DNA of 64,000 nt from positions 42,710 to 106,709 of IMG/VR virus record IMGVR_UViG_3300031772_000004, one strand, 5' to 3'. A program made the position numbers and the translations under genes. The notes beneath the pieces are model-generated. The model searched no databases. It was not told the DNA's origin and worked only from the letters and a program-made list of their open reading frames with translations. The stretch comes from a virus (Duplodnaviria; Heunggongvirae; Uroviricota; Caudoviricetes). Below are positions 1,218 through 42,721 of this stretch, piece by piece (the stretch's first letter is position 1; each line of letters opens with the position of its first letter).

Positions 1218-2043
1218 AATTATTTATTTCATTTTTTATCCAATTTTCTATAGAATAATTAGGATTCCAATTAAAATTTTGAATGCTATCGGTTATATAA
1301 AAATTAAATGATGGAGAATACATACCATCTTCGAAACAAAGTGTTGTGTCAGGCAAATACTTACAAATCATATTTGCCAATTCAATATTTGTAATTGATT
1401 TTCCTGATGCAGCTAAAACCATTGAATGATTATTGTTTTTAATAGAAATTTTATAACAAAGTTCGGTTAAATCATCAATATGAAGATAATCTTGGCATCT
1501 ATCTTTGTTTCCTATAATAGTAATTTTTTTATCAGTGATAGCAGCCTTTAATAAAATAGGCAGCAATGATTTTTTATCCATTCCTGTTCCGTAGATGTAT
1601 GTTGGTCGAATTATTGTGTAATTTTCTTTTAACATTATTAAAAATTCTTGAGCCAATTTTGCCATTCCATATTCTCTTGGATTATTATATGAACTATTAA
1701 CATGTATAGTATCTTTATGCTCACCATATACCGCAGTGCTAGATATGAAAATAAGTTTTTTGTATCTTAGTTTAATACCAAAGGTTTGTAATAACGAAAG
1801 TTGATTAAGAAAATCTCTGTGGGAAGAATAATAATTTCCCATTGAAACAAACAAACAATCTAAATCAGACATATGTGACCATTCCATAGAAGGAAATTTT
1901 TGTGTCGGACATAAAACACACTCTTTCGGTATGCTTTCATAATTAGTTTTATAAAATGCATATACTTTATGTCCTAATTGGATATATTTAAGGCATAGGT
2001 TTCTTCCTATGAAACCATTTGCGCCAATAACACCTATATTCAT
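1207..2043 (-). CDS. NAD-dependent epimerase/dehydratase (SDR family)
   Basis: N-terminal Rossmann GxxGxxG: MNIGVIGANGFIGRNL. 278 aa. Sugar-nucleotide context. Confidence 0.55.
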   Translation of the reverse strand: MNIGVIGANGFIGRNLCLKYIQLGHKVYAFYKTNYESIPKECVLCPTQKFPSMEWSHMSDLDCLFVSMGNYYSSHRDFLNQLSLLQTFGIKLRYKKLIFISSTAVYGEHKDTIHVNSSYNNPREYGMAKLAQEFLIMLKENYTIIRPTYIYGTGMDKKSLLPILLKAAITDKKITIIGNKDRCQDYLHIDDLTELCYKISIKNNNHSMVLAASGKSITNIELANMICKYLPDTTLCFEDGMYSPSFNFYITDSIQNFNWNPNYSIENWIKNEINNYER

Positions 2044-3041
2044 AATTGTATTGTGCTTCCTTTTAATTCTCCCTGCCGTTGTAGAGAACTAATAGCAGTA
2101 TTACTTACGACAAGCTCATTCCAATATCTTAAAATCGTGAGCGGTTTAATATCAAATTCTGGTTCTTTTCCTTTTAATATAAAATCCGCTATCATCTTTG
2201 GTTCATTAAATCCGCAAAGTGTTCGTGCCGCAGTTGTTCCGGAGCACCTTGCATTTATTTCTATGATGAATGGAACACCATTTCTTACTCTTAATTGTAT
2301 GTTACACGCACCAAATGGCTTAATTGTATCAGCTATATTTTTTACGCACTTTTCTATAACAATATTGTGTTCCGAAAAGCACTTGTATGTGTCGCCATCT
2401 CGAAGAATCCTACGCATAACAATAACACCTTTACATTCATTGTTTAAGTTTATTGTTCCACAAGTATATTCATCACCCTCAATGTATTCTTGAAGAATGA
2501 AATTGTCGATATTATCACCTATTTTAGCTAATATCAGTTTTAATTCGGTTTTATCCTTTACCAAAAATACATTTTGTGATCTAGCTCCACCAACCATTTG
2601 TTTAATGATAACAGGAAATTCTACATTTTTTGCCTGACTAAGAGGAAAGGTAAATGGAAATTTTCCCGCAACATTTCTATCTAAAGAATCATACATATAT
2701 TGTTTATCATTAGATAATTTAATTACATTTGGATTACTAACTATTACCGTTGTTCCTATTGCTTTAAATGCATCTACATTTAGGGATAATGTTTCTAATT
2801 CGGCGTCAAGACCAGGAAATAGTAAAGAAATACCTTCTTTCTTACAAATGCCTAATAAAACTGATATGTAATCAGGCTTATTAACAAATGGTATTAAATA
2901 AGAATTTGGTACTGCATATAATCCTGTTGCAAGAGTTTCACCATCTAATGCAATAATGTCATAGTCGGTATTATACAAAGACTTTATGATGCTTTGACCA
3001 ACACCGCCACCGGCACCAGTAATCGCAATTTTATGTGCCAT
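2040..3041 (-). CDS. ATP-grasp domain protein (carboxylate-amine ligase)
   Basis: IAITGAGGGVGQS pre-ATP-grasp N-terminus, EYIEGDEYTCG and IIEINARCSGTT (ATP-grasp 'EINAR' Mg/ATP motif). Confidence 0.6.
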   Translation of the reverse strand: MAHKIAITGAGGGVGQSIIKSLYNTDYDIIALDGETLATGLYAVPNSYLIPFVNKPDYISVLLGICKKEGISLLFPGLDAELETLSLNVDAFKAIGTTVIVSNPNVIKLSNDKQYMYDSLDRNVAGKFPFTFPLSQAKNVEFPVIIKQMVGGARSQNVFLVKDKTELKLILAKIGDNIDNFILQEYIEGDEYTCGTINLNNECKGVIVMRRILRDGDTYKCFSEHNIVIEKCVKNIADTIKPFGACNIQLRVRNGVPFIIEINARCSGTTAARTLCGFNEPKMIADFILKGKEPEFDIKPLTILRYWNELVVSNTAISSLQRQGELKGSTIQL

Positions 3042-3043
3042 AA

Positions 3044-3670
3044 TTATTTATAAACCTCAAATTTGCTTAAATCGGGGTATGGCAATTCTAAGTCATCATT
3101 ACATTTTTTACTTCCGTCAATATTGTAAAATTGCTTTATAAGAAGAAGGCCGCGCGCCGATAACTCAGGCATCATATAAAAATTCCAACCTAACATATCA
3201 AAATAATCTTCGTGGTAAGAACATTCTCTTCTTCCTGAAAATCTTGCTCGTTTAAACCAAAAGTATGCGGTTTGACTATCTGTTAAAATAGCACCACCTT
3301 TTGATAGTTTAAAATGTTTGTAGGGACCAGTAAAAGACAGGCACATGTAACTTTTTGGTATATACATATCTGCTGTAAATCTAAGTGCGGAATCCCATAC
3401 ATTTGTCGGCTCTAATTGATATGCTCCTTTTAATGTAGTTCCCACGACAGGTTTAAATTTGACCTTGGCACCAGCATGAATAATTTCACAGGGAACAGAA
3501 GGATAAGTTCGAGAGGGAATTGTAATTTCTTTACCTTTAACATTTTCATATGTTAGTGCTAAAAATAAAGCGTTGCTAGCATTATCTATAGTTATAACAT
3601 AAGGCGCGCCGGTATAATCTGCTAGTTCTTTCTCGAATTCTTCGGTTATTTTATGTACATTATTGGCCAT
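3044..3670 (-). CDS. DegT/DnrJ/EryC1-like PLP aminotransferase-related protein, unusually short
   Basis: EFEKELADYTGAPYVITIDNASNALFLAL...ITIPSRTYPSVPCEIIHAGAKVKF matches the DegT N-terminus. SFTGPYKHFKLSKGGAILTD resembles the PLP-lysine region. Only 208 aa against about 370 for the family. Confidence 0.4.
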   Translation of the reverse strand: MANNVHKITEEFEKELADYTGAPYVITIDNASNALFLALTYENVKGKEITIPSRTYPSVPCEIIHAGAKVKFKPVVGTTLKGAYQLEPTNVWDSALRFTADMYIPKSYMCLSFTGPYKHFKLSKGGAILTDSQTAYFWFKRARFSGRRECSYHEDYFDMLGWNFYMMPELSARGLLLIKQFYNIDGSKKCNDDLELPYPDLSKFEVYK

Positions 3671-3673
3671 AGT

Positions 3674-3895
3674 TTATTCTTCATTAAAAACTTCTATGCA
3701 TAAAACTTTATTGTCGTTTATCATAAGCATAGAGCCATCTTTTCGTTTCATTTTTGTAAATTGACCCTGTTTAATTCCTTCTGTACAGATTCCTGTATAT
3801 GTTCTTTTAATACCACCATCAAAATGTATTATTTGCGTAACATATTTTCCCTGTTCATAGACCGACGAATTTAAATTGACAATTTTTTTAAGCAT
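3674..3895 (-). CDS. hypothetical protein
   Basis: 73-aa ORF packed between neighbours on the same strand. Confidence 0.3.
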   Translation of the reverse strand: MLKKIVNLNSSVYEQGKYVTQIIHFDGGIKRTYTGICTEGIKQGQFTKMKRKDGSMLMINDNKVLCIEVFNEE

Positions 3896-3929
3896 ATATT
3901 TAATAATATAACATTTATTTGGTTGTTGG

Positions 3930-4823
3930 TCAAGACATTAAACTATTTTTAATATTATGTAATTCTTCGGAAACCTTTGCAAAAACATCATTTGTTTTTG
4001 ATTGTGCTTTGAATGTAATATATTTAGTCCAAAATTGATGTGCATGCCAATACTTTCTATCTTCTTGTATAATGCAGTTTTTAATTATATATTGTGGTAT
4101 ATTATACTTTCCAGAAGCATTCATCATTTTAAATTTTTCTTGTTGAAATAGGTCTATATGGCGAAAGTCTCCTATGCTTTCTGGCAATTTCATAAGTTTT
4201 GTTAGCTCCTTTGAATGAAAATTAAACCAACCTCCAGCGAATTTGGTGTCATAGTTTTTTAATAAAGAAATTTCCTGTAAATTTATTTTTGTTTCTAATT
4301 CAAATACATTAATATCATCGAAGCTAACTGGAGAATTTACATATTCTTCTGAACTTATGACATTCCAAGATGCGTCCCAAAATTTGGCGATTTGTGGGGT
4401 GATCATATATGTCAATGTTTCTTTTTCTATTGTTGGAATAATGTTTTCTAAAACATGCAAAATTTCTACAGGAAAATATATGTCTGGGTCTAACCAAATT
4501 AAATTATATTCTCCGTTGTTATTGTTTAAAATTCTTCGTTGATGTTCTCCAGAACCTTTTATATCATCATTGATTTCAAAATTTACTTCTTTACAAAAAT
4601 CACAATGTTTTTCAATGTATCTAAATTTATCAACAAAAAACTCCTTTGGTAATTTACAATTATCCCAATCAAGTTTATCATCGGCCATATTAAAAACTAT
4701 GTCCAGACTCAAATACTTTTTGGTGTCGGAATAATTAGCCGCTCTTTTTAATTGATAAATTGTTCTTTCCAATAAATCAATGTGAAATGGGAATATAAAA
4801 TATACTATTTTTGTTTTATCCAT
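3930..4823 (-). CDS. hypothetical protein (glycan island)
   Basis: 297-aa ORF. Compact same-strand arrangement. No motif recognised. Confidence 0.35.
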   Translation of the reverse strand: MDKTKIVYFIFPFHIDLLERTIYQLKRAANYSDTKKYLSLDIVFNMADDKLDWDNCKLPKEFFVDKFRYIEKHCDFCKEVNFEINDDIKGSGEHQRRILNNNNGEYNLIWLDPDIYFPVEILHVLENIIPTIEKETLTYMITPQIAKFWDASWNVISSEEYVNSPVSFDDINVFELETKINLQEISLLKNYDTKFAGGWFNFHSKELTKLMKLPESIGDFRHIDLFQQEKFKMMNASGKYNIPQYIIKNCIIQEDRKYWHAHQFWTKYITFKAQSKTNDVFAKVSEELHNIKNSLMS

Positions 4824-7100: not shown

Positions 7101-7861
7101 CTTTTTATTCCTTGAAATAACATGATATTTTTATCTACATTAAAAGTATTATTGATTTCAAAATGCTTCTGTAAATTATATTCAACAATTATTTTTTTAG
7201 TTTCGTCAAAAAATGTAGAATTTTTCCAGTAAGAAATAACATCTTCTACAGAATTCCATCGTATTGTATTTATAATAGTATTAATTTGTATATCCTTAAA
7301 ATGTGTTATTCCCGGATAAACAACTTTATCATACATAAAATTTGTACATGAATATAAAACAAATTCGTTTATTTTTACACCTGACTCCTCAATTAAATTA
7401 AATAAAGTTTTGTTACTGTTTCCGTATGAACCCAAAACTATAAATTTTCCATTTGGATTTAAAGATTCTACAATCATAGTTATTAATTTGTCTATATTTG
7501 TCGAATAATATAAGCCATAAGAAATAAAAACCACATCATATTTTTTTAAATTTGTATCAAAAAATTCATCCATACTTATAACTTTTGTTGATATTTTAGA
7601 ACTGTCAAAAAATGAAGCCGCTTCTATAGAACAAATAGAATCAGATGATATATCAATTGCTGTTATATGTGAATTAGAAAAGTGCTTACACAAATATTCT
7701 GTTTGTTTTCCTGTTCCACAACACATTTCTAATATATTTATAGGTTCTATTGTAGTGAAAATTTTAGAAAATGCCCACGTATTCAAATTGAATGTTTGAT
7801 TATTTTCATTTTGCTTTATTCTTTCTTTTAAAGATGTTGTGTTTTTAGAGGCAGTATTCAT
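7097..7861 (-). CDS. class I SAM-dependent methyltransferase
   Basis: ILEMCCGTGKQTEYL (motif I) ... KYDVVFISYGLYY. Confidence 0.5.
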   Translation of the reverse strand: MNTASKNTTSLKERIKQNENNQTFNLNTWAFSKIFTTIEPINILEMCCGTGKQTEYLCKHFSNSHITAIDISSDSICSIEAASFFDSSKISTKVISMDEFFDTNLKKYDVVFISYGLYYSTNIDKLITMIVESLNPNGKFIVLGSYGNSNKTLFNLIEESGVKINEFVLYSCTNFMYDKVVYPGITHFKDIQINTIINTIRWNSVEDVISYWKNSTFFDETKKIIVEYNLQKHFEINNTFNVDKNIMLFQGIKS

Positions 7862-8829
7862 ATAAAAGAATCTTCATCGTAATCTTTTTCTGCTATTTCT
7901 CCTAAAATATTTTCAAATTTATAAGCAGGTATAGAATTTTCTAAAAATGGTCTTTTTGTGGTTATATTATTTACGGTGAATATTTCTCCTTTTTTAATAA
8001 TACACTTTGACACCACCGACCTCATAGCATTAGAAAAGGGCTTTTCTGATTCAGATAAATCGTTAGATTGGGGAATCATTGATAATTCAGTCTGCACAAT
8101 CAAATCCACCATCTCTTTTAATTCAGATGGTTCTAAAGCAAATGGGTGGTCGGGACCTGGCAAATGTTTGCTTAATGTAAAATGTTTCTCTATTGTTGTT
8201 GCTCCTAATGCAACAGCAAGAGATGGCGTCAATGTTGATGTTGTATGGTCAGAAAATCCTGTCTTATATCGAATATCCGCCGCTAAAGTTTTTATTGTAG
8301 TCAATCCAATATCTTTCATTGGTGTAGGATAAGCATTATTACAATGTAATAATGTTACATCATTCGTATATTTTGACACTAATTTTAATAATTTGTCTAA
8401 CCATTCATATTTAAATCCTATGCCAAGAGATATAATAAGAGGCAATTTTGCTGAAGCCACCATTTCTACAAATCTAAAGTCTGTGGATTCAAATCCTGCT
8501 ATTTTAAGTTTTTTAACACCCAAATTAACTAATTCTTCTACCGCTTTTTCATCAAACGGAGTGGACATAAATTCTATATCAAGAGAATCACAATAATTTT
8601 TTAAATCTTTTTGCCATTCTCTTGGCAATTCTATGTTTTTTATTAATTCATTGATGTTTATATATCCAGCAAAATTTGGTGTATTTTTAACATATAAAGT
8701 TTCTGATGAATATGTTTGAAATTTAACAGCAGTAGCACCAGAATTTTTAGCTACATTTATTAATTGTAATGCTTGATTATAATTTTTATTGTGATTAGCA
8801 CCCACTTCAGCTATGATAAATGTTTTCAT
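7858..8829 (-). CDS. NeuB-family nonulosonic acid synthase (N-acetylneuraminate/pseudaminate/legionaminate synthase-like)
   Basis: MKTFIIAEVGANHNKNYNQALQLINVAKNSGATAVKFQTY, the NeuB TIM-barrel N-terminus. Size 323 aa. Confidence 0.75.
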   Translation of the reverse strand: MKTFIIAEVGANHNKNYNQALQLINVAKNSGATAVKFQTYSSETLYVKNTPNFAGYININELIKNIELPREWQKDLKNYCDSLDIEFMSTPFDEKAVEELVNLGVKKLKIAGFESTDFRFVEMVASAKLPLIISLGIGFKYEWLDKLLKLVSKYTNDVTLLHCNNAYPTPMKDIGLTTIKTLAADIRYKTGFSDHTTSTLTPSLAVALGATTIEKHFTLSKHLPGPDHPFALEPSELKEMVDLIVQTELSMIPQSNDLSESEKPFSNAMRSVVSKCIIKKGEIFTVNNITTKRPFLENSIPAYKFENILGEIAEKDYDEDSFI

Positions 8830-10336: not shown

Positions 10337-10953
10337 TGTAGTGCAGTGTTATCACACTTAAAATTTAATATTTCTGTTTTTGTTTTTTCATTAACATCTA
10401 AATTTATATGTGCGATTAGTTGAGTTCCAGTTATTTGTCTATAATCCTTTATGATAAACTCATCTTTACATTTAACCAACCAAAAACATTCTCCACCATA
10501 GTCTCCAGTTAAATATTCATGAAATATAAAATTCTTACAACCAAGAGATTTGCAGTGGTCATAAAATAGTTCTTGATTTCTTTGGTTTTCATACATCATT
10601 GTTCCTTGAGTATAAATTAAAAATGAATGTAAATTTTTAAAGTTTTCGTTAGACTTTGAAAGTTCAATAAAATCTATAATGCTAGTTTCTGTATATTTTA
10701 GACGTTTAAATTGCCGACACCATTTGATAGTTTCATATGGTGTAATATCACACCCCCACAAATCAAACTTATCTTTTTCATCAAATGGTATAAAATCTCT
10801 GCCGTTAGCGCAACCAAATATCAAAATATTATTAATATAAGGTGGCAGATAATCTACAAGATGATTTACGCATTTTTCGCTTTTTTGCAACCAATCTTCT
10901 AAGTTACGGCCGGTATAATAACCAATCCATCGTGGACTTTGTGGGTATTTCAT
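10333..10953 (-). CDS. hypothetical protein (possible Rossmann-fold methyltransferase)
   Basis: ILIFGCANGRDFIPF weakly resembles a SAM-MTase motif I. Confidence 0.3.
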   Translation of the reverse strand: MKYPQSPRWIGYYTGRNLEDWLQKSEKCVNHLVDYLPPYINNILIFGCANGRDFIPFDEKDKFDLWGCDITPYETIKWCRQFKRLKYTETSIIDFIELSKSNENFKNLHSFLIYTQGTMMYENQRNQELFYDHCKSLGCKNFIFHEYLTGDYGGECFWLVKCKDEFIIKDYRQITGTQLIAHINLDVNEKTKTEILNFKCDNTALQ

Positions 10954-12230
10954 ATATTTTTCCTAAAAATTGCGATGCTTCTTTTTCCTTGTAATACTTT
11001 ATCAACATTGTTTTGGTTTTCTTCGACAATTTTAAATGCTTCATCCGCCGCATCAATGGTTTTTTGTATATCTTTTGTTGTGTGGGAAAATTGAATATAT
11101 ATCACATTTGGAAATAATATGTTTTTCTTAACCATTTCTTGATAGAACAAATCTTTCATCCCCGCCGCGTCGGAGTGCGTGGTTTCATCAAAGGTTAAAT
11201 TGTGGCGGGGAGCACTGCCAGCGAAATTAATGTTTAAATTGTGTTTTTTTGCCATTTCTTTAATGCCTACATCCAACATATTTCCAAGCTTCCATATTTT
11301 GCTATAATCTTTATCATTTTTTAATATTTTGATTGTTTCTATCGCTGCGGCTAGAGAAAGACATTCGCCACCAAATGTCATAGAATAAAATACGACATTT
11401 AATTCATTCATATATTCTTTTTTGCCGGCAATAGCACTAATTGGCATACCATTTGCCATTGCTTTACCTAAACACGCTAAGTCAGGAATAACATTGAAGT
11501 GCCCCTGTGCTCCACCCAATGCCCAACGAAATCCTGTTACAACTTCATCAAATATTAACAAAGCTTTATAATCAGTACACAATTTTCTTACACCTTCAAG
11601 AAATCCTGGGGTTGGTGCTGTTAAACATTGCGGTTCTAAAATAACTCCTGCTACATCACCTTTTTTAAGAATGATTTCTAAACTTTCTAGATTATTATAT
11701 TCAAATGTATCAATAATATCCTTGAGACAAGATGGGATTCCATATGGCCTAAGTGTTATGCCATGCCAATCGCCCCAACCATGATATCCACACTTTGCTA
11801 TTCTTTCTTTTTTTGTATAAGACCGAGCAATTCGAACTGCAGCAAGGGTAGAATCAGAACCATTTTTTGCAAATCTCACTTGTTCTGCACATGGAACTAC
11901 CTCAGTTATTAATTGTGCTAATTCTTGCTCTAATAGTGTTGGAAGAGAAAAAATTATACCACTTTTAATTTGTTTTTTTATTGCAGAATTTACTTTGGGG
12001 TTATTATAACCTAATATTATAGGCCCAAGTCCGCACATGTAATCTAAAAATTTATTTCCGTTTAAATCAAATAAATATGCTCCTTTCCCACGACTAACAA
12101 ATTTTGGATATACACCATCTACAAATTGGTCGGGACACTTACTCATGGTTTGAGTTCCCCGAGGCATAAGTCGAACGGCATTTTCCCACAATTGATTTTC
12201 GTCTATGGTTTTCATATTATTACTCCGCAT
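10950..12230 (-). CDS. class-III PLP aminotransferase (glutamate-1-semialdehyde aminomutase-like; PtmG-like)
   Basis: GSDSTLAAVRIARSYT, IFDEVVTGFRW, LGKAMANG (PLP-Lys region). 426 aa. Confidence 0.65.
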   Translation of the reverse strand: MRSNNMKTIDENQLWENAVRLMPRGTQTMSKCPDQFVDGVYPKFVSRGKGAYLFDLNGNKFLDYMCGLGPIILGYNNPKVNSAIKKQIKSGIIFSLPTLLEQELAQLITEVVPCAEQVRFAKNGSDSTLAAVRIARSYTKKERIAKCGYHGWGDWHGITLRPYGIPSCLKDIIDTFEYNNLESLEIILKKGDVAGVILEPQCLTAPTPGFLEGVRKLCTDYKALLIFDEVVTGFRWALGGAQGHFNVIPDLACLGKAMANGMPISAIAGKKEYMNELNVVFYSMTFGGECLSLAAAIETIKILKNDKDYSKIWKLGNMLDVGIKEMAKKHNLNINFAGSAPRHNLTFDETTHSDAAGMKDLFYQEMVKKNILFPNVIYIQFSHTTKDIQKTIDAADEAFKIVEENQNNVDKVLQGKRSIAIFRKNI

Positions 12231-13242
12231 CCTTCAATCCCCGAATTATGAGTTCATTCAAGAATTTTTGGTCGGTATTTAACAACAATTGAGAATTTAA
12301 TTCAATTCCTGTGTATTTTTTGAATGCATATGATTTTTGTGTATATTGTGGAAGAATGCACAACAATTCTTCACAATAAAACGATTTGGCTTCTTCATCA
12401 AAAGGAATTGTATATGTAAATGGTAATTCTGAATTTGCTAACATATCTTCGTGGAATTTTTCTCCTGGACGCATACCTATTTCTATATATTTCAATGGTT
12501 TCTTTGTAATAAATTCAATTGAATTCATCACATTTTGCATTGTAAATGAATTTAATTTTGGTACAAATACTTCACCGCCAACTCCCCACATTAAAGAATT
12601 TAAAACAGTATTAACAGAATCTTCTAATGTGAATAAGAATCTTGTGCAATCTAAAGATGTAACTTTTATTGGTTCATTGTTTTCTAAAGCATCTATCCAG
12701 ATTGGTATAAATGACCCCCGGCTGGCTATTACATTACCATATCGAACAGAAGTAAAAATTGTGGAATGACCTGCTTTGGAAGAATAATAATCTTGATTTA
12801 AAAACATTCTCTCGGCAATAAATTTTGTCGCCCCATATACATTTATTGGCTGACAAGCTTTATCAGTTGATATTAATATACATTTATCTATTTTGTTTAA
12901 TAAGCAGGCATTTGTAACATTTATGCTACCAAGAATGTTTGTTTTGACCGCTTCATCAGGATAATATTCCACATCATCAATTCTTTTTAAAGCGGCAGTG
13001 TGAATTACATAGTTTGGCTTATATATGGATAAAGCGTAATTTAGTTTTTCAAAATCTCTAATGTCGCCAATAATTCTGATTATATCTTTGTCTTTTCCAA
13101 AATAAAGAGATTGTTTGCCCTCATCTCGGCTGTATATTATAATTTCACATTGGAATTTTTTCAGCTTTTTTATTAAAGCTCTGCCCAATGAACCTGTTCC
13201 ACCTGTTATCAATACCTTTTTGTTTTTAAAGAAATTAATCAT
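12220..13242 (-). CDS. PseB/CapD/FlaA1-like UDP-sugar 4,6-dehydratase
   Basis: KKVLITGGTGSLGRALIKKL ... IIYSRDEGKQ, characteristic of the polysacc_synt_2 (PseB/CapD) family. Confidence 0.7.
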   Translation of the reverse strand: MINFFKNKKVLITGGTGSLGRALIKKLKKFQCEIIIYSRDEGKQSLYFGKDKDIIRIIGDIRDFEKLNYALSIYKPNYVIHTAALKRIDDVEYYPDEAVKTNILGSINVTNACLLNKIDKCILISTDKACQPINVYGATKFIAERMFLNQDYYSSKAGHSTIFTSVRYGNVIASRGSFIPIWIDALENNEPIKVTSLDCTRFLFTLEDSVNTVLNSLMWGVGGEVFVPKLNSFTMQNVMNSIEFITKKPLKYIEIGMRPGEKFHEDMLANSELPFTYTIPFDEEAKSFYCEELLCILPQYTQKSYAFKKYTGIELNSQLLLNTDQKFLNELIIRGLKDAE

Positions 13243-35425: not shown

Positions 35426-36166
35426 ATGAAAAAAGAAATCCTAGAAAAATTCATCCGAAAATACTCAATGAACGGCTTGATAGATTCCGTTAAATTTGTA
35501 ATCAAAGCGGCCGATAAGAAATTATCCACCAATACGATTACAGGAGAAAAGAATGTATTGGTTAATGTAGCATTAGCAGAATTTGACGCAATAACAGAAG
35601 ATTGTGAATTTGGTGTTTATGAAACAGCAAAGTTAAATAAAATGTTAAGCGTTCTTGGTGAGGAAGTGTCACTTTCTTTAAATAAAGTTGACGATAGAAT
35701 TACTTCATTAAGCGTTGAAGATGGAAAGACTGAAATACAATTTATAACTGCAGATTTAAGTGTTATTCCAACCGCTCCAAATCTAAAGAAAATGCCGGAG
35801 TTTAATGTAGAAATTGAATTGGATGATGATTTTATTACACGCTTCATCAAAGCAAAAAATGCCCTTCCTGATGTAGATATATTCACACTATTAATGAATA
35901 AAAAGAAGAAACTAGATATGGTTATCGGTTATTCTATGTTAAATAGCAATCGAATTACTCTTGGGGTAACGGCAAAGGCTGGTAAAGACGCGGTTACTAA
36001 GAATATTAACTTTAGCGCTAAGTATTTGAAAGAAATATTAACGGCTAATGGTGAGTGTGATAGTGCTATCTTAAAGGTTAGTGATGCAGGATTGGCAACG
36101 ATAGCATTTAGTAAAGATAATTTTACTTCAAACTATTATATGGTTGAAGTTAAGACAGCAGAGTAA
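35426..36166 (+). CDS. candidate sliding clamp (T4 gp45-like)
   Basis: 246 aa. Precedes the clamp-loader gene as in T4 (45-44-62). Strong SD AAAAGAGGT upstream. Only loose compositional similarity to gp45. Confidence 0.45.
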   Translation: MKKEILEKFIRKYSMNGLIDSVKFVIKAADKKLSTNTITGEKNVLVNVALAEFDAITEDCEFGVYETAKLNKMLSVLGEEVSLSLNKVDDRITSLSVEDGKTEIQFITADLSVIPTAPNLKKMPEFNVEIELDDDFITRFIKAKNALPDVDIFTLLMNKKKKLDMVIGYSMLNSNRITLGVTAKAGKDAVTKNINFSAKYLKEILTANGECDSAILKVSDAGLATIAFSKDNFTSNYYMVEVKTAE

Positions 36167-36168
36167 AT

Positions 36169-36279
36169 ATGGATTATACACCTTGGAAATGGTATCAAAA
36201 ACCATTCAATAAATACTATTGGAAAATGTGGTGGTGGGATTTTAAAGTAAAAATCGGATTAGAATCTGATATGGACTAA
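36169..36279 (+). CDS. Trp-rich micro-ORF (36 aa)
   Basis: MDYTPWKWYQKPFNKYYWKMWWWDFKVKIGLESDMD, 8 Trp in 36 residues. ATG 3 nt after the upstream stop. Confidence 0.2.
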   Translation: MDYTPWKWYQKPFNKYYWKMWWWDFKVKIGLESDMD

Positions 36280-36281
36280 CT

Positions 36282-36701
36282 ATGATATACTATTCAAATG
36301 AAATGTTACCGAATAAATTAAGTAGCGATGGGAATATAATTCCTTATACAGGATTATATCAAATCTGTGGATTCATTGATAGTAAAATACTTATAACGAC
36401 AAGAGATAAACAAATGGCAGATAGAATAGTTTATCTTTTATCAGAGGATGATAGAGTTAAAGAGGAGAGTTGGAAAAAGGAACGAGAGCGTGAGGAAAAG
36501 AAAAAATACAATTTAATCATAGACCAACATTACGATGAATATGGCGTTGGCTGGCAAATATCAGATAAACTTAAACATTGGAAGAAATATTATACCGACA
36601 TGTTTTATTATACATTGCAATGTAAAACTGACGAAGACTTTGTAAAAGCATATGAATCTATTTGGTGGGATGAAAATAAAGACAAAAATGAAAGAGACTG
36701 A
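36282..36701 (+). CDS. hypothetical protein
   Basis: 139-aa ORF. Confidence 0.3.
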   Translation: MIYYSNEMLPNKLSSDGNIIPYTGLYQICGFIDSKILITTRDKQMADRIVYLLSEDDRVKEESWKKEREREEKKKYNLIIDQHYDEYGVGWQISDKLKHWKKYYTDMFYYTLQCKTDEDFVKAYESIWWDENKDKNERD

Positions 36702-36837
36702 TTATAAAGGGTTTTGTGAACATTACGATGCAATGGTTGAAGTGGGTTGTCCAATGGACAGAAAAGAATTAGTAAGACTTGCTAAAATATATAATACACC
36801 AATTCCCGAAGAATGGAATTATGTAGGGTATAGATAA
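36652..36837 (+). CDS. hypothetical protein
   Basis: 61-aa ORF. The true start is probably internal at about 36688. Confidence 0.25.
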   Translation: MNLFGGMKIKTKMKETDYKGFCEHYDAMVEVGCPMDRKELVRLAKIYNTPIPEEWNYVGYR

Positions 36838-36838
36838 T

Positions 36839-37135
36839 ATGGATACAAGAACAGGAGAAATTTATACGCCCGAACAGATGAAACTGATAGAAGAACTTGC
36901 TGAGAAAAAAGCTTTATATAAGACTCTCACGGAAAAGTTGGAAGCAATGGGCGCTAAAGACCTTCTTTCACATTTAAAACAAGTAAATATACCTCTTACA
37001 GAAACTCAAATAAAAAATATGAAGATTGAACCATATGATCCATGTCCGTGTGGAAGTGGAAATAAATTTAAATTTTGTTGTAATGGAAAAGAAAACGATT
37101 ATAATAAAGCTATGGCAAAGTTAATAAAAAATTAA
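36839..37135 (+). CDS. SEC-C motif-containing small protein
   Basis: C-terminal PCPCGSGNKFKFCC matches the SecA C-terminal (SEC-C) metal-binding motif. Confidence 0.45.
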   Translation: MDTRTGEIYTPEQMKLIEELAEKKALYKTLTEKLEAMGAKDLLSHLKQVNIPLTETQIKNMKIEPYDPCPCGSGNKFKFCCNGKENDYNKAMAKLIKN

Positions 37136-37137
37136 TT

Positions 37138-37383
37138 ATGTTATCAAAAAAATTAAACACAAACTATACTTTTTTCAACAAAAATGTGGATAATTCGTGG
37201 GATGGATATGTTTTGGTATTTGTTGGACAAGAAAAAATGGGGCCGATGATGTCAACTAACATTAAAAAGATGAGTGCAACATTAGTATTTTTAACACCCG
37301 CAGAAGCAGAATTATCCAAGAAAAATTATAGTAAAGTACTTCGAGAATTTTTAAAAGTAGTTAAATGTAAGGTAAGTATATAA
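37138..37383 (+). CDS. hypothetical protein
   Basis: 81-aa ORF. Confidence 0.3.
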   Translation: MLSKKLNTNYTFFNKNVDNSWDGYVLVFVGQEKMGPMMSTNIKKMSATLVFLTPAEAELSKKNYSKVLREFLKVVKCKVSI

Positions 37384-37384
37384 T

Positions 37385-37573
37385 ATGCCATATGGTCCAT
37401 GTATTCTGTGCGGAGCAACTAATTACCCATCCTCCTTTGGCGGCCCGCTGATTTGTCCTTCTTGTGATTGTGGAAATCCTCCACAGCAAAAACAAGAATA
37501 TTTTTCCTTGTTTCCTGAAGCGAAATCAGATAGAATAATAGAGTTATTAGAGCAAATTAAAGATAAACTATGA
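37385..37573 (+). CDS. hypothetical Zn-ribbon protein
   Basis: CILCG...CPSCDCG. Confidence 0.3.
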   Translation: MPYGPCILCGATNYPSSFGGPLICPSCDCGNPPQQKQEYFSLFPEAKSDRIIELLEQIKDKL

Positions 37574-38529
37574 ATCATTTTGAGATAGAAGAACATGCAG
37601 AGGCAGAAAGTCAACACACTATATTTGTAGAAAAATATCGTCCATCTAAATTGGAAGATTATGTTGGAGACAAGGTATTTAAAGCAACATTACAATCTTT
37701 TATTGATAAGAAAGACATACCACACTTATTGTTTTATAATTCAAGTCCGGGCACAGGTAAGACTGCTGCTGCAAAGATACTTGTAAAGAATATTCCTTGT
37801 GATTATTTGTATCTTAATGCATCCGATGAAAATGGAATTGAAACAGTACGAACAAAAATTAAAGGTTTTGCTTCATCTGCTGGTTTTTATCCTCTTAAAA
37901 TTGTTATATTAGACGAATGTGACCAGATTACGCCAGAAGGGCAGGGGGCACTTCGTAATTTGATTGAAACATTCTCTTTACATACAAGATTTATTTTAAC
38001 TTGTAATTATATGGAGAAAATGATACCGCCGATTGTTTCAAGGTGTCAGACGCATAAAGTTGAATCACCAACAAAGAAAGAAGTAGCATTATTAGTTAAA
38101 AGTATATTGGATAAGGAAAGTATTAAGTATACCGCAGAAGATTTAGCATACATTGTAAACACTTATTATCCTGATATGCGAAAGGTTATTAATTTTGCTC
38201 AACAAAGTGTTGTTGAAAGTCAATTGATTATTAATCGACATAATATTGTTGAAACCGACACCAAATTGAAAGTCTTGGAATTGTTAAAGACAGCAATTAG
38301 CAATCCAACAACATTTAATACAATTCGACAATTGATTGCTGATGCTGATATAAGGTTTTATGATGAATATTATAAATTCTTATACGATAAGGTTGGAGAA
38401 TTTGCGAAAGGTAAAGATGTCTTAGCAATTTTGACTATTGCTGAATATTTGTATCAATCATCGTTGGTAGTTGATAAAGAGATTACATTTATGGCTTGCA
38501 TAGCAAGACTTATTAAGGAATTAAAATGA
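37570..38529 (+). CDS. clamp loader ATPase subunit (RFC-like; T4 gp44-like)
   Basis: Walker A NSSPGTGKTAAAKIL. Walker B/DExD ILDECDQIT. SRC-like region LRNLIETFSLHTRFILTCN. AAA+ lid. Confidence 0.75.
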   Translation: MNHFEIEEHAEAESQHTIFVEKYRPSKLEDYVGDKVFKATLQSFIDKKDIPHLLFYNSSPGTGKTAAAKILVKNIPCDYLYLNASDENGIETVRTKIKGFASSAGFYPLKIVILDECDQITPEGQGALRNLIETFSLHTRFILTCNYMEKMIPPIVSRCQTHKVESPTKKEVALLVKSILDKESIKYTAEDLAYIVNTYYPDMRKVINFAQQSVVESQLIINRHNIVETDTKLKVLELLKTAISNPTTFNTIRQLIADADIRFYDEYYKFLYDKVGEFAKGKDVLAILTIAEYLYQSSLVVDKEITFMACIARLIKELK

Positions 38530-38675
38530 ATTGGAAAGAAATACAACGATTATTAGAAATTGACAACGACAAACAAACTCTATTAATAGAATTAATGACA
38601 TTTGTAAAAGCAAAAGGCCTTTGGGAAGAATTTGAAAAATGCTCGACCATTAAAATTGTGAAGGAATTAAAATGA
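38526..38675 (+). CDS. micro-ORF A (49 aa), ends KELK
   Basis: ATG overlaps the TGA of the clamp loader via the AAGGAATTAAAATGA junction. Read by eye. Below the track cutoff. Confidence 0.3.
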   Translation: MNWKEIQRLLEIDNDKQTLLIELMTFVKAKGLWEEFEKCSTIKIVKELK

Positions 38676-38809
38676 TAACCCGTGAAGAATTAAAAAATGT
38701 AATAGAAATTTTAACACGCCGATGCAATTTGATATGTACTGAAGACAATGCTACAGATATCATGACATATGATGAATGGATTGATAACATATTAGGGGAA
38801 TTAAAATGA
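38672..38809 (+). CDS. micro-ORF B (45 aa), ends GELK
   Basis: Same junction motif at both ends. Confidence 0.3.
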   Translation: MITREELKNVIEILTRRCNLICTEDNATDIMTYDEWIDNILGELK

Positions 38810-38979
38810 TTTTTTGTTTTCATAACTGGGATTATTTTCTATATGGAAATCGGAAATGTATTAAATGCAATAAAAACCAATATTGGAAAGCAACAGCAAA
38901 CCTGTCCGGCGGATTTGTTAATGGAAAGAGAAATCCCCGACCGGCCGTTCAGAAACTTATCATGAAGGAATTAAAATGA
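38806..38979 (+). CDS. micro-ORF C (57 aa), Cys-containing, ends KELK
   Basis: Same junction motif at both ends. CxxC (CIKC). Confidence 0.3.
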   Translation: MIFCFHNWDYFLYGNRKCIKCNKNQYWKATANLSGGFVNGKRNPRPAVQKLIMKELK

Positions 38980-39079
38980 TTAAAGGCATTGAAAAAATAA
39001 CAAAGAAAGATTTGTTCGATTTGACATTGCAATACAAGCAGTCGAAGATTATTTACGGCGGAAATAAATTATGGCATTA
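38976..39079 (+). CDS. micro-ORF D (34 aa)
   Basis: Starts in the fourth copy of the junction. Ends TAA 39077-39079, overlapping the start of 39071..39397. Confidence 0.25.
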
Positions 39080-39397
39080 AGCAATGTAGATCCAAATACT
39101 GGTATGGAATATGATTTCAGAGATTATTCTTCTATATCTAGTCCATATTCTTGTAATTCATGTTATTCTACACAATTTCATTGTGCAACGATGCCTGTAA
39201 ATTATACATGTTATCCGATACCACCGAAGAAAGAAGAATTAAGTAAATTTCTTGGTAGAATGGTAATGTATAAAAATAAGACTTGGAAATGTATTGCAAC
39301 AGCAAATGGTCGAATCTCTTTAGAAAGGAAAACTTTCTTTCTCCGACGAATGAAATATGATACTGCTTCGGTCTATGAATTGAGGATATTAATATGA
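39071..39397 (+). CDS. hypothetical Cys-rich protein
   Basis: 108-aa ORF (CNSCYST...C). Confidence 0.3.
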   Translation: MALSNVDPNTGMEYDFRDYSSISSPYSCNSCYSTQFHCATMPVNYTCYPIPPKKEELSKFLGRMVMYKNKTWKCIATANGRISLERKTFFLRRMKYDTASVYELRILI

Positions 39398-39936
39398 AAT
39401 TAAATCTTAAGCAATTAATAAATGAATTGAATATAGATCGGTCTATTGATCGAACGGCCAAATTTAAAAAAACCACACAAAAAGTTACAAAATATAATTT
39501 TGACATATCGGGAATAAACTATGTTATAGACTTTGTAGAGGCAGAAATGCCAAGTGGGCAATCCGTATTAGAGGTAAGTTTTAAAAATTTAACAGCCATA
39601 GAAAAATTAAAAAGTAAAAAACAACGAAACACAGAAAAGTTTTATCAAGACTTGGATAGGGCTAAATATGGACTGACGAATACAGGCAAATCAATGTTAA
39701 TATTCAATGAAATTTACAATGCCGTTATAAGTTATATCGAAAAATACAAACCAGCATATTTTAAATACGAAGCGATTGAAGACAACAGAAAAAAATTGTA
39801 TAATACTCTCTTGAAGCGTGCCGAAAAACAAACAGCATTGAAATTTAAAAGACTATATGTTGACCCCGAAACGGATTACAGACTTCCTTTTTCCCTGCTT
39901 GAAAGCCAACGATTTATCTATAAAATAGAATATTAA
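39394..39936 (+). CDS. hypothetical protein
   Basis: 180-aa ORF, ATGA-coupled. Confidence 0.35.
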   Translation: MKLNLKQLINELNIDRSIDRTAKFKKTTQKVTKYNFDISGINYVIDFVEAEMPSGQSVLEVSFKNLTAIEKLKSKKQRNTEKFYQDLDRAKYGLTNTGKSMLIFNEIYNAVISYIEKYKPAYFKYEAIEDNRKKLYNTLLKRAEKQTALKFKRLYVDPETDYRLPFSLLESQRFIYKIEY

Positions 39937-39937
39937 A

Positions 39938-40171
39938 ATGAAACCTATAGACTTTAAAGATAGCAATCATAAATTTGCAGAGAAGCAAAAGGAATATATA
40001 ACTTTACCCGGTTATATGGATGAAAATGGGATATTTATTTCTTGTTGGAAATTAACATTTTTTGAAAGAATAATAGTATTACTAAAAGGTAAAATATTTT
40101 TGTCCACGATGACATTTTTTAAACCACTACAACCACAAAGAATGTCTGTAAAATTTGAGGAGGAAATATGA
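39938..40171 (+). CDS. hypothetical protein
   Basis: 77-aa ORF. Confidence 0.3.
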   Translation: MKPIDFKDSNHKFAEKQKEYITLPGYMDENGIFISCWKLTFFERIIVLLKGKIFLSTMTFFKPLQPQRMSVKFEEEI

Positions 40172-41157
40172 ATTTTAACCAAGGATTAAATTATAATAAT
40201 ATTGTTTTGACGCCAAATTTTTCGACATTACCGAGCAGAAGTCTTGCGGGTACATCTTTAATTTTTGGTAATAAAGTATTTGAATTACCTATTTGTCCGG
40301 CCAATATGGTTTGTTGTATCAGCACAGAACTTGCCTATTGGTTGAGCGAGCATAATTATTTTTATGTAATGCACCGTTTTGATGGTGAAACTAATAAGAA
40401 AGATTTGCGTTGGTTCATTGAAAAGGCTAATACGGAAATGTGGCATTGTATTAGTATTAGTATTGGAGTTCAAGAAGAAGATTATGAATTATTGTGGTGG
40501 ATTAATGTACGAAACCTTCGAGTGGATTTTATTACGATAGATATTTCTCATGGCCACTGTTTAAAAATGAAGGAAATGTTAGAGTTTCTTAATAAAGAAA
40601 TTAAATTTAAAAATAAAACATTTGTTATAGCTGGCAATATTGGCACGCGAGAAGCGGTTAGTGATTTAGAAATTTGGGGCGCAGACGCAACTAAAGTAGG
40701 ATTAGCCTTTGGAAAAGCTTGTATAACTAAGAACAAAACGGGATTTGCTTCTCCAATGTTTTCTACTATTTTATTATGCTCTCAAAATTCTAAAAAACCC
40801 ATTATCGCTGATGGTTCAATTAGTGAAAATGGGGATATAACAAAGGCATTAGTGGCTGGGGCAACAATGGTTATGGCGGGGAATATATTTGCGGCTTGTG
40901 TTGATAGTCCCGCCGAAAGTATTTATTCTGAAAATGGCAAACACATTGTTTCTAAAAAATATTTTGGTTCGGCATCTAAACGCAGTGGAAAAACTAAAAA
41001 TATTGAAGGAACAGAAGTTATAATTGAATGTAATGATATGACTTACAATGAAAAATTAGAAGAAATTAAGCAAGATTTACAATCAAGCTTATCGTTTACT
41101 GGCCATAGTAATAAACTTGAAGACTTAAAAAGAGTGGAATGGAAAATTTTACAATGA
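40168..41157 (+). CDS. GMP reductase (GuaC)/IMPDH-family TIM-barrel enzyme
   Basis: VIAGNIGTREAVSDLEIWGADATKVGLAFGKACITKNKTGFA aligns with E. coli GuaC [42 protein letters not shown], and the catalytic Cys is retained. IIADGSISENGDITKALVAGATMVMAG aligns with [28 protein letters not shown]. Confidence 0.65.
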   Translation: MNFNQGLNYNNIVLTPNFSTLPSRSLAGTSLIFGNKVFELPICPANMVCCISTELAYWLSEHNYFYVMHRFDGETNKKDLRWFIEKANTEMWHCISISIGVQEEDYELLWWINVRNLRVDFITIDISHGHCLKMKEMLEFLNKEIKFKNKTFVIAGNIGTREAVSDLEIWGADATKVGLAFGKACITKNKTGFASPMFSTILLCSQNSKKPIIADGSISENGDITKALVAGATMVMAGNIFAACVDSPAESIYSENGKHIVSKKYFGSASKRSGKTKNIEGTEVIIECNDMTYNEKLEEIKQDLQSSLSFTGHSNKLEDLKRVEWKILQ

Positions 41158-41696
41158 AAAACATTTTAAACAGAAATAGAGTATACCTTGTCGGTCAAAT
41201 GCAATACATCAAAGATGGTTCTGTTTGGCGTGATTATGTCGAAGCAGAATTAAAAAAGATGGGTGTAATTGTATTTAATCCATATAATCATCCATTTATC
41301 AATTCCGTGACGGAGGATAACAATGCAACGGCAACATTAAAGAGTCTTATCGCTGAAGGGAAATATGATGAATGTGCTGAAATTATGCGAAAGATTCGTG
41401 GCGAAGATTTACGTGTCGTTGACATTGCTGATTTTATATTTTGCTATATAGACCCGCTTAAACCGACCTGTGGGGCGTGGGAAGAAGTTTTCACGGCGAA
41501 TCGCGCTAAAAAGCCTATATTTTTTGTAGCCGAAGGCGGAAAGGATGTTTGTCCTCTCTGGCTTTATGGTACAATTCCCCATAAATATATGTATAATTCC
41601 ATAGATGATGCTTTGCAAATGCTTTGGGATATTAACAGCGGTGCAAAGCCTATTGATTCTTCCCGTTGGCGCATTCTCCGACCAGAATTCCTATAA
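41154..41696 (+). CDS. nucleoside 2-deoxyribosyltransferase-like (Rossmann-like) protein
   Basis: MKNILNRNRVYLVGQMQ... resembles the NDT-like N-terminal (YLAGP-type) motif. The start is ATGA-coupled to guaC-like. The track ORF begins at 41139. Confidence 0.4.
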   Translation: MKNILNRNRVYLVGQMQYIKDGSVWRDYVEAELKKMGVIVFNPYNHPFINSVTEDNNATATLKSLIAEGKYDECAEIMRKIRGEDLRVVDIADFIFCYIDPLKPTCGAWEEVFTANRAKKPIFFVAEGGKDVCPLWLYGTIPHKYMYNSIDDALQMLWDINSGAKPIDSSRWRILRPEFL

Positions 41697-41931
41697 ATTA
41701 ACCTACATAATCAATTTATTTCTGATATATATAGCTATAAAATATTAGCTGAACAAATTATTAAAGAATATGAATCCATATTCTGATGACATCATGCTAT
41801 AGGCCTATTTGGCAGCAATTTTATATGTTATAATAATAATTTTCCAAATGATATACAAAGGCCTGTTGGAATAAAAGGAGAATTTTTAAAATAGTATCAT
41901 AGAAGAATGTAGAACAATTCCACACAAATAT

Positions 41932-42038
41932 ATGTATGATTCCATTGATGATGTTTTGAATGTGCTTTGTGATATTAATAACGGAACGCGTGAAATAGAT
42001 TCTTCTAGATGGCGCCTTCTCCGAGAAGAATTTAGATA
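41932..42038 (+). pseudogene. decayed duplicate of the 3' end of the upstream NDT-like gene
   Basis: 41914-42040 is about 80% identical to 41571-41696. It encodes MYDSIDDVLNVLCDINNGTREIDSSRWRLLREEFR, versus MYNSIDDALQMLWDINSGAKPIDSSRWRILRPEFL in the intact gene. An in-frame stop lies just upstream. Confidence 0.5.
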
Positions 42039-42082
42039 AAATAAGTCATTATAATCATAAAATTTGTGATATTTATGATTAT

Positions 42083-42721
42083 ATGGCAAAACATGACTAT
42101 AAAAAAATAGCTAAAAGACAATTTTTAAAAGAATATGGTGATATTGGTGGCGGAATGTATGGCGGTGGTGCTGCCGTTTCTGCTGGTTTTGTAAATCCTG
42201 GAATGGGTACTTTTAGCTCTCCTGATGCACGACAAAATCTGTCGGCTTTTGCAAATAACCATCCAACCATGCAATATCCTGTTGGACAACATAAAGTTGA
42301 TTGGTTTAATAGTGATAAAGCTACAGGTCCATCCGAAGAAGATGTCCAAGAATTAAAAAACAAAGTTACTCCCGATGAGATTCTTTTAGGGATAGAATAC
42401 GAACTTAAAAGACAATTTCATAAGAATAAAAGTAACGCAAAAGAAATCGTTGTACAGAATTTAAAAAAAGATCCGAAATATTATTCTAGTTTACATATGA
42501 TGCAGATGAGCGATGAAAGAGTTAATGAGGAGAAAAAAATTGAAGATATGAAAGATAAAGCAAATATTAACGATAAAGGTGTAAATGTTGATGAGGTTAA
42601 GAAAATTGTAGAAGAAATGCTTTCAAAAAGAAAGAAAACACAAGTACCAATTGATGTAAAAATCGTAACTGCTTATAATGATAGCATTGATAGAAAAACC
42701 AAAAAGCGTTGGACAGTTTAA
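42083..42721 (+). CDS. hypothetical protein (Gly-rich N-terminus)
   Basis: 212 aa. GDIGGGMYGGGAAVSAGFVNPGMG then a charged C-terminal half. Confidence 0.35.
   Translation: MAKHDYKKIAKRQFLKEYGDIGGGMYGGGAAVSAGFVNPGMGTFSSPDARQNLSAFANNHPTMQYPVGQHKVDWFNSDKATGPSEEDVQELKNKVTPDEILLGIEYELKRQFHKNKSNAKEIVVQNLKKDPKYYSSLHMMQMSDERVNEEKKIEDMKDKANINDKGVNVDEVKKIVEEMLSKRKKTQVPIDVKIVTAYNDSIDRKTKKRWTV

Follow-up and report, generated by a model that had tools for sequence, protein, structure and literature searches.

The clamp-loader gene of a tailed phage is followed by a run of micro-open reading frames (ORFs), which are joined to it and to each other by one repeated nucleotide motif. The motif was analyzed in a 64,000-nucleotide stretch of a Caudoviricetes genome (the window), corresponding to positions 42,710 to 106,709 of the IMG/VR record IMGVR_UViG_3300031772_000004. 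We propose, with a probability of about 0.6, that this motif of 15–18 nucleotides (nt) is a portable stop/start junction and that small ORFs are exchanged by short-homology recombination at the junction or at look-alike sequences. The original prediction described the clamp-loader gene and ORFs of 49, 45, and 57 amino acids (aa) as a chain linked by the repeated junction, and these coordinates were confirmed, with exact copies beginning at 38515, 38661, and 38965. At each of the four consecutive junctions, the stop and start codons overlap as ATGA, and every ORF lies in the −1 frame of its predecessor. The micro-ORFs m49, m45, m57, and m34 and the surrounding features are listed in Table 1.

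The exact 15-mer AAGGAATTAAAATGA was read directly from the window at 38515–38529, 38661–38675, and 38965–38979. A whole-genome search for this 15-mer had been suggested; in the 64-kb window it gave these three copies, compared to a mean of 0.01 in dinucleotide-preserving shuffles, and 0 of 100 shuffles reached three. The fourth copy, GGGGAATTAAAATGA at 38795–38809, carries two mismatches (GG for AA) rather than the single mismatch counted previously. Junctions 2 and 4 share an identical stretch of 18 nt (TGAAGGAATTAAAATGAT at 38659–38676 and 38963–38980, 304 nt apart), and in an alignment of the junction contexts the likeness faded about 15–20 nt upstream of the stop codon. As a stricter null, the 11 nt upstream of the start codon were compared among all other start regions of the window (4753 pairs). 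Whereas a full 11/11 match was found in one of these pairs and at least nine matches in 33 pairs (0.7%), the junctions scored 11, 9, and 9. The window has a GC content of 32% and contains about 25 other ATGA junctions, whose upstream sequences all differ. Junction-like motifs with up to three edits occurred 34 times in the window, and seven of them clustered within a 1.4-kb span of this region. The variant AAGGAATTAAAAATATATG preceding 55010, which had been considered related to the junction, is present, but it is no more similar than ordinary start regions that combine a Shine-Dalgarno (SD) sequence with AT-rich DNA.

The junction consists of the SD sequence AAGGA, a 6-nt spacer, and an ATG overlapping the TGA. 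The SD and the overlap had been described correctly, but the spacer is ATTAAA and not 5 nt. In the other genes of the window, the spacing is mostly 5–9 nt with a mode of 7 nt, and the 6 nt of the junction fall within this range. In junction 3, the SD equivalent is GGGGA, which could still pair with the 16S rRNA through G-U wobble. No structure was found by RNA folding of 91 nt around each junction (z-scores of 0.0 to +1.8). A sigma-70-type consensus scan of 36000–41500 yielded 34 promoter-like sites compared to 29.2 ± 4.9 in shuffles, with none common to the four junctions, and no terminator-like site was detected in 38400–39100. Because there was no excess of promoters or terminators, the micro-ORFs are probably co-transcribed with the clamp loader. 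The junction itself, at 15–18 nt, is too short to contain a −35/−10 promoter. In E. coli, ATGA overlaps with an SD inside the upstream gene lead to termination-reinitiation, and the SD was needed in four of five tested pairs (PMC6728339). Translational coupling of the micro-ORFs is predicted from the sequence.

A different explanation at the RNA level would be recoding or regulation. The tRNA-Lys could slip by −1 at A_AAA_UGA to produce ...KELK-M... fusions, since AAA would pair fully again after a shift of one base back, and the −1 frame then continues with AUG; alternatively, the junctions could be operators of a RegA-type repressor. In line with an RNA-level role, the spacer is kept beyond the needs of the SD and the start codon, even where it is non-coding. 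However, folding did not reveal a stimulatory downstream structure, and the SD is located just 4 nt from the slip codon. According to the dnaX literature, −1 shifts are stimulated by an SD located 10–14 nt from the slip site. A RegA homologue was not found in the 64-kb window or in the close relatives, while the same query finds one in the distant relative L051. We therefore regard slippage and repression at the junctions as very improbable.

The relatives comprised 55 loci from IMG/VR, four from a scan of Joint Genome Institute (JGI) metagenomes, and further contigs from a large protein collection. A comparison of related genomes had been proposed in the original prediction. Among the relatives, these micro-ORFs were variously present, absent, or truncated, and the breakpoints lay at the junction or next to it. 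L058, a 965-nt JGI contig (sample 3300037264), begins with TTAAAATGAT. From the 3' part of junction 2 onward, it follows the m45 ORF at 93% identity. This match ends with ...GAAT at window position 38801, inside junction 3, and past that point no similarity is left in any frame. The m45 homologue of L058 forms the N-terminal 43 residues of a 114-aa ORF (P0001). This ORF is directly followed by the o108 and o77 homologues, and therefore m57, m34, and o180 are all missing from L058. The o108 homologue has only 73% nt identity.

The position of the m45 homologue within a longer ORF would also fit a single larger gene that was split by frameshifts, sequencing errors, or an assembly artefact. Several results oppose this. 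The region 37570–41700 (4131 nt) was 100% identical in four independent assemblies from different samples, and therefore the junction chain is not an assembly artefact, as had been considered at the outset. The clamp-loader protein also occurred with identical sequence on 15 contigs, the longest of which is 205 kb. For the other 70 residues of P0001, no match was found in any frame of 38500–39450, six other members of the m45 family are 52–64 aa long, and the window m45 has the entire core. A broken larger gene is thus barely credible. The narrower candidate, in which m57 or m34 is a frameshifted remainder of P0001, was rejected because no similarity was found in any frame.

The second close relative, L069, is a 1331-nt contig (sample ERR12814457) carrying junction 1 and m49 with four substitutions and a different tail. 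It shows a 58-nt deletion (38635–38692) between the junction look-alikes GAAGAATTTGAAAAATG and GAAGAATTAAAAAATG, which are imperfect direct repeats of 16–17 nt. The tail of m49, junction 2, and the first codons of m45 were lost in this deletion. Separately, the L069 clamp loader is 65–77% identical to the window in its 5' part and 93–100% identical from 38078 onward. Given this sharp mosaic breakpoint, the 3' half of the clamp loader was recently exchanged together with m49 and m45 between diverged phages.

Other relatives extend these observations. The m45 and m57 ORFs form a 304-nt block that is bounded by junctions 2 and 4 as 18-nt perfect direct repeats. Similarly, o180 is bounded by GAGGATATTAATATGA and GAATATTAAAATGA, and L058 has one such junction at that place, while in L011 and L036 the o180 homologue directly follows the clamp loader. 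The clamp loaders of L076 and L078 are 73% identical to that of the window at the aa level and end in MKELK with AAAGAGTTAAAATAA. In these relatives, the exact 15-mer is located about 60 nt past the clamp-loader stop codon, outside any ORF, in the start region of a 54-aa gene. Because the exact 15-mer is non-coding there, the constraint appears to act on nucleotides, beyond the peptide alone. In L074, AAGAAATTAAAATGA links two other micro-ORFs of the same region. Exact-pattern scans of IMG/VR for two junctions 115–145 nt apart and for a 32-mer from m45 gave zero matches. These comparisons suggest recombination at or near the junction motif. The claim of microhomology-mediated cassette shuffling is upheld insofar as the breakpoints in relatives lie at or beside the junction, but the L069 deletion used flanking look-alikes and not junction 2.

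We consider m45 a genuine protein. When 1.84 billion representatives were searched in full by phmmer with P0001 as query, seven matches had E ≤ 3e-4, all on query residues 1–51. The resulting family consists of P0001 and seven cluster representatives of 45–64 aa. Its core of about 45 residues, M..EL..LI.IL.RRCNL.CT.D.ATNVMTYD.W.D.IL.E[LF], has seven invariant alignment columns and is wholly contained in the window m45. The family is unannotated and helical, with two conserved Cys and the motif RRCNL.CT.D.ATNVMTYD.W. One member lies at 2501–2668 of L079, between QRPTase-like and isochorismatase-like (NAD-salvage) genes. The AlphaFold2 (AF2) model of m45 is a confident three-helix bundle with a mean predicted local distance difference test (pLDDT) score of 82.6, in which the KELK-type tail is the final helix turn, and a fold search with this model returned no meaningful match. 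For the other small ORFs, the four micro-ORFs were concatenated and used as query in a word-indexed protein search, in which P0001 was the sole match. No homologues were found for m57 and m34, none for m49 besides the L069 copy, and a protein search with o108 returned only o108 itself and the L058 copy.

The m45-family core natively ends in ...IL-x-E-[LF]-x, and the L079 DNA at this place is TTAGAAGAATTAAATGAT compared to TTAGGGGAATTAAAATGAT in junction 3. On this comparison, junction 3 is a hybrid of the native m45 tail on the left and the junction on the right, not a mutated copy, and its two apparent mismatches are thereby explained. A crossover or a single A insertion within the microhomology GAATTAAA could yield junction 3.

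The m45 protein was also compared with the clamp loader, because the micro-ORFs could be decayed tail copies that arose by tandem duplication of the clamp-loader 3' end, in units of 3n+2 nt including the junction. The periods (146, 134, and 170 nt) each leave a remainder of 2 when divided by 3, though this is forced by the ATGA overlaps. In an ungapped comparison with the last 40 clamp-loader residues, tail excluded, m45 reached p = 0.006 by shuffling, and it gave a weak Pfam match to DNA_pol3_gamma_R_C (E = 0.016). However, a profile of 20-odd clamp-loader tails from relatives scored m45 at 0.4, with 526 of 2000 shuffles higher. Moreover, the m45 family is independent and occurs in other contexts, such as the NAD-salvage genes of L079, and m49 and m57 are similar neither to the clamp loader nor to each other. 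The duplication origin was rejected after the tail-profile test. For m45 it is largely refuted, and overall its chance is very small.

The identity of the clamp loader was confirmed by several searches. The 319-aa ORF matched phrog_168, "clamp loader of DNA polymerase" (2.3e-72, residues 14–317), and the Pfam families AAA and DNA_pol3_delta2, and tblastn returned sliding-clamp loaders of the nearest cultured phages at 35–45% identity. A DNA search of 37000–41000 against 50,697 phage records gave zero matches. The window also encodes a T4-type DNA polymerase, a helicase, and a clamp-like gene, and the phage is a large T4-related phage. The candidate that o180 is a gp62-like small clamp-loader subunit was rejected: it had no support in Pfam, PHROGs, or PDB, and its position varies between relatives.

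Junction 1 makes up the final four codons and the stop codon of the clamp-loader gene. The clamp loaders of relatives are encoded by differing DNA but terminate in K[DE]L[KR](K), and an ATGA or TAATG overlap is frequent at this end. Since this end is kept across relatives, junction 1 is the native clamp-loader gene end. Its counterparts at the clamp-loader 3' end are exact in L069, AAGGAATTGAAATGA in L059, and AAGGAATTAGAATGA in L047. The original prediction held that the junction forced the proteins to end in KELK or GELK. The tails are present, but they are native in the clamp-loader lineage and the m45 family. The clamp-loader KELK and the m45 ELK are thus native tails, and the m49 and m57 tails are most simply regarded as by-products of the junction.

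These tails raise the question of convergence, in which each junction separately reached the same optimal coupling start or the same helix-ending peptide (hydrophobic-hydrophobic-K-E-L-K). The K[DE]L[KR] tail of the clamp loader is indeed kept at the protein level with different DNA, the m45-family core natively ends in x-E-[LFIM]-x, and inserting one A and making two A>G changes in L079 TTAGAAGAATTAAATGAT would give junction 3. In addition, positions −6 and −5 are aliphatic in all four KELK/GELK proteins with differing codons, and the tail is the last helix turn in the m45 model. On the other hand, the identity extends over 15 nt in three copies and over 18 nt in two, synonymous and spacer positions included, and 11/11 upstream identity occurred in just one of the 4753 other start-region pairs. 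A peptide cannot constrain the non-coding exact 15-mer in L076, and a replacement event is needed to account for the abrupt change at junction 3, where 93% identity gives way to none. Convergence is therefore considered unlikely.

Under the preferred reading, a portable junction with exchange by short homology, the following mechanism is proposed. The final four codons of an ORF (AAG GAA TTA AAA) would carry the SD AAGGA, which would pair with the 16S 3' end, and a ribosome terminating at UGA would restart on the overlapping AUG, six bases past the SD. Free 30S subunits could also bind, as the site is unstructured. The promoter-less micro-ORFs would thus be expressed from the clamp-loader transcript. 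The junction would stem from the 3' end of the clamp-loader gene, which ancestrally encoded KELK, and small ORFs would then be gained, replaced, truncated, and lost via short-homology recombination, with crossovers in the junction or in AT-rich look-alikes of the type GAAG(G)AATTAAAA(A)TG. A crossover within the junction would leave the upstream ORF intact, ending in ...ELK, and the downstream start intact, so that the recombinant would be viable and the junction would be copied together with each cassette. Such recombination would most likely be a rare microhomology exchange filtered by selection, as junction crossovers would keep both ORFs expressed. The homing-endonuclease genes near the clamp loader of relatives and the intein of L002 could supply double-strand breaks that raise recombination.

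Several points weigh against this reading. Open, unstructured sites would also permit independent initiation, and coupling need not be obligatory. Only three close relatives were informative, two of which, at 965 and 1331 nt, are short contigs. The 15 contigs of this genotype do not differ from each other across the region, giving zero population-level variation, and no "empty site" genome without the m45 and m57 block was found among the relatives. The endpoints of the L069 deletion flank junction 2 and lie outside junction 2 itself. Junction 3 could also be explained without recombination, if the native m45 tail gained one A and underwent two substitutions. Finally, 15–18 nt is judged to be far below efficient T4-type homology, and the events would be rare and selection-filtered, not targeted. 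Recombination patches of less than 50 bp are given for T4-type phages (Singer 1982, as cited in PMC2839356).

A bolder reading, which we regard as possible but doubtful, is that the junction is the hallmark of distinct mobile "translational cassettes", that is, promoter-less micro-ORFs whose 15–18-nt junction serves as both expression signal and crossover site. If so, new small genes could enter an essential, highly expressed replication operon with frames and downstream expression unharmed. Such cassettes would be a counterpart of promoter early stem-loop (PeSL) elements and integron cassettes without a dedicated recombinase, and they may be widespread in AT-rich large phages.

The junctions are located in a variable region. 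The interval between the clamp loader and the deoxyribosyltransferase-like gene measures 0 kb in L001, 0.4 kb in L002, 0.9 kb in L059, and 2.6 kb in the window, and its ORFs differ. In the window, the interval (38529–41154) contains nine consecutive junctions, seven of which are ATGA overlaps. The clamp loader is directly followed by the conserved deoxyribosyltransferase-like gene in L001, by one or two small ORFs in L002, L059, and L060/L071, by homing-endonuclease-like genes in L070, L074, and L077, and by a polymerase-sized gene in L003 and L040. By this comparison, the interval qualifies as a hyperplastic region as that term is applied to T4-type phages. No foreign-looking segment was detected in the base composition of the region, and no inverted repeat was found at the junctions.

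Table 1. Features of the ORF chain downstream of the clamp-loader gene, in window coordinates.
Feature	Position	Strand	Remarks
Clamp-loader large subunit gene	37570–38529	+	gp44/RFC-like AAA+ ATPase, 319 aa, ends LIKELK
Junction 1	38515–38529	+	AAGGAATTAAAATGA; SD AAGGA, spacer ATTAAA, ATG overlapping TGA
Micro-ORF m49	38526–38675	+	49 aa, ends IVKELK; gene call also in public assemblies
Junction-like repeat	38625–38641	+	GAAGAATTTGAAAAATG; left edge of the L069 58-nt deletion
Junction 2	38659–38676	+	18-nt exact repeat TGAAGGAATTAAAATGAT
Micro-ORF m45	38672–38809	+	45 aa, ends ILGELK; full core of a conserved small helical protein family
Junction-like repeat	38684–38699	+	GAAGAATTAAAAAATG; within m45, right edge of the L069 deletion
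Junction 3	38795–38809	+	GGGGAATTAAAATGA; apparent hybrid, left half m45-family native tail, right half junction
Micro-ORF m57	38806–38979	+	57 aa, C-x-H ... C-x2-C, ends IMKELK
Junction 4	38963–38980	+	Exact 18-nt repeat of junction 2
Micro-ORF m34	38976–39080	+	34 aa, starts at the last junction; 10-nt overlap with the next ORF start
ORF o108	39071–39397	+	108 aa; homologues in L058 and L059, each with a different downstream neighbour
Junction-like stop/start	39382–39397	+	GAGGATATTAATATGA; o108 to o180
ORF o180	39394–39936	+	Missing at this place in L058
Junction-like sequence	39928–39941	+	GAATATTAAAATGA; o180 to o77; with 39382–39397 an imperfect direct repeat around o180

Additional features were observed around the clamp loader. 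In L002/L044/L062 (about 2857–3968), the clamp loader is split by an intein-like insertion, an ORF ending in ...HNFFVGKTQILTSN before the extein Cys. Homing-endonuclease-like genes (NUMOD3, DUF723, GIY-YIG) are located beside the clamp loader in L070 (1553–2143), L074 (2584–3714), and L077 (2370–2555). In the window, a second variable stretch of small ORFs (36166–37570) lies between the clamp-like gene (35426–36166) and the clamp loader. Its ORFs are unlike those of L059, one of them (36839–37135) carries a SEC-C-type zinc motif (PF02810), and no repeated junction was seen in this stretch.

Within the hypervariable region, an IMPDH/GMP-reductase-family gene (40168–41157; phrog_9582, 1.1e-67; PF00478 in public calls) is missing at that place in L058 and L059. 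The deoxyribosyltransferase-like gene (41154–41696) has a relic second 3' end at 41914–42039, about 220 nt downstream. This relic is about 80% identical to 41575–41696 and encodes ...SSRWRLLREEFR, as the relatives do, which suggests a partial allele replacement with the old gene end left behind. Elsewhere in the window, about 25 back-to-back ORFs on the minus strand (597–23164), many of them ATGA-overlapped, form a large sugar-biosynthesis cluster. Its members include NeuB (7861–8829), a PseB-like Polysacc_synt_2 dehydratase (12223–13242), a class-III aminotransferase (10953–12230), an ATP-grasp enzyme (2043–3041), epimerases, and GT2/GT4 glycosyltransferases. From these members, the cluster looks like a nonulosonic-acid pathway of the pseudaminic or legionaminic type.

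Phage genomes contain many tiny genes with fast turnover, and their gain without harm to essential neighbours is understood only in part. For T4-type phages, the PeSL cassette with its promoter and terminator is the established answer, and this locus suggests a leaner route. Here, a ribosome restart signal in the last codons of a gene would double as an exchange seam, and every recombinant would be expressed in the correct frame. Were this route general, it would account for rows of overlapping micro-ORFs beside core genes and would provide a simple signature by which accessory genes of recent arrival, such as anti-defence candidates, could be found in metagenomic phages. As the basis is one lineage and a few short contigs, the locus is for now an instructive example and not a new principle.

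The original prediction compared the junctions to PeSLs, and the analogy of role holds. In T4-related hyperplastic regions, short repeated motifs flank small ORFans in the same manner (Arbiol et al. 2010, PMC2839356; Comeau et al. 2014, PMC4122927). In both systems, the SD and start codon are placed at the 3' end of the motif. Indels and replacements between relatives end in the PeSL motifs, and the junction may share this feature, as the similarity to L058 breaks inside junction 3. Some mapped PeSL crossovers fall between the SD/ATG and the −10 box (Arbiol et al. 2010, PMC2839356). Membership was not supported, however, since a promoter and a stem-loop were not found. Each PeSL lies between genes and has a sigma-70 promoter and a G/C-rich stem-loop, which give the cassette its own transcription. 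In contrast, the junction has 15–18 nt, lies mostly within coding sequence without a promoter or stem-loop, and would permit only translational restart on an existing message. In the window, the repeat is the end of the upstream ORF with no intergenic space, and it is intergenic only in L076. Mini-circles have been demonstrated for PeSLs. Therefore, the junction is not classed as a PeSL and would be best seen as its translational counterpart.

Integron attC sites are roughly 57–141 bp long. Integron cassettes resemble the micro-ORFs as small promoter-less ORFs in a row with a repeated site after each and expression driven from upstream; the same analogy was drawn for PeSLs by Arbiol et al. (PMC2839356). 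However, attC sites are imperfect inverted repeats cut by an integrase, whereas the junction has no inverted repeat, and no integrase was found among the selected window ORFs that were scanned. Illegitimate recombination between short direct repeats, by microhomology or slipped mispairing, is also similar, as indicated by the L069 deletion and by the repeats flanking m45 with m57 and o180. That process is generic and untargeted, whereas the repeats here are functional start sites and the products stay expressible.

The T4 gene 44–62 pair is a classic phage example of translational coupling. The junction shares the four-base overlap, the SD in the upstream gene, and the normal spacing with the ATGA termination-reinitiation pairs (Huber et al. 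2019, PMC6728339). In ordinary coupled pairs, each junction has a sequence of its own, but here one sequence is reused four times running and recurs in relatives. Thus, in its form the junction is an ordinary ATGA coupling site, and the unusual part is its reuse as a repeated seam.

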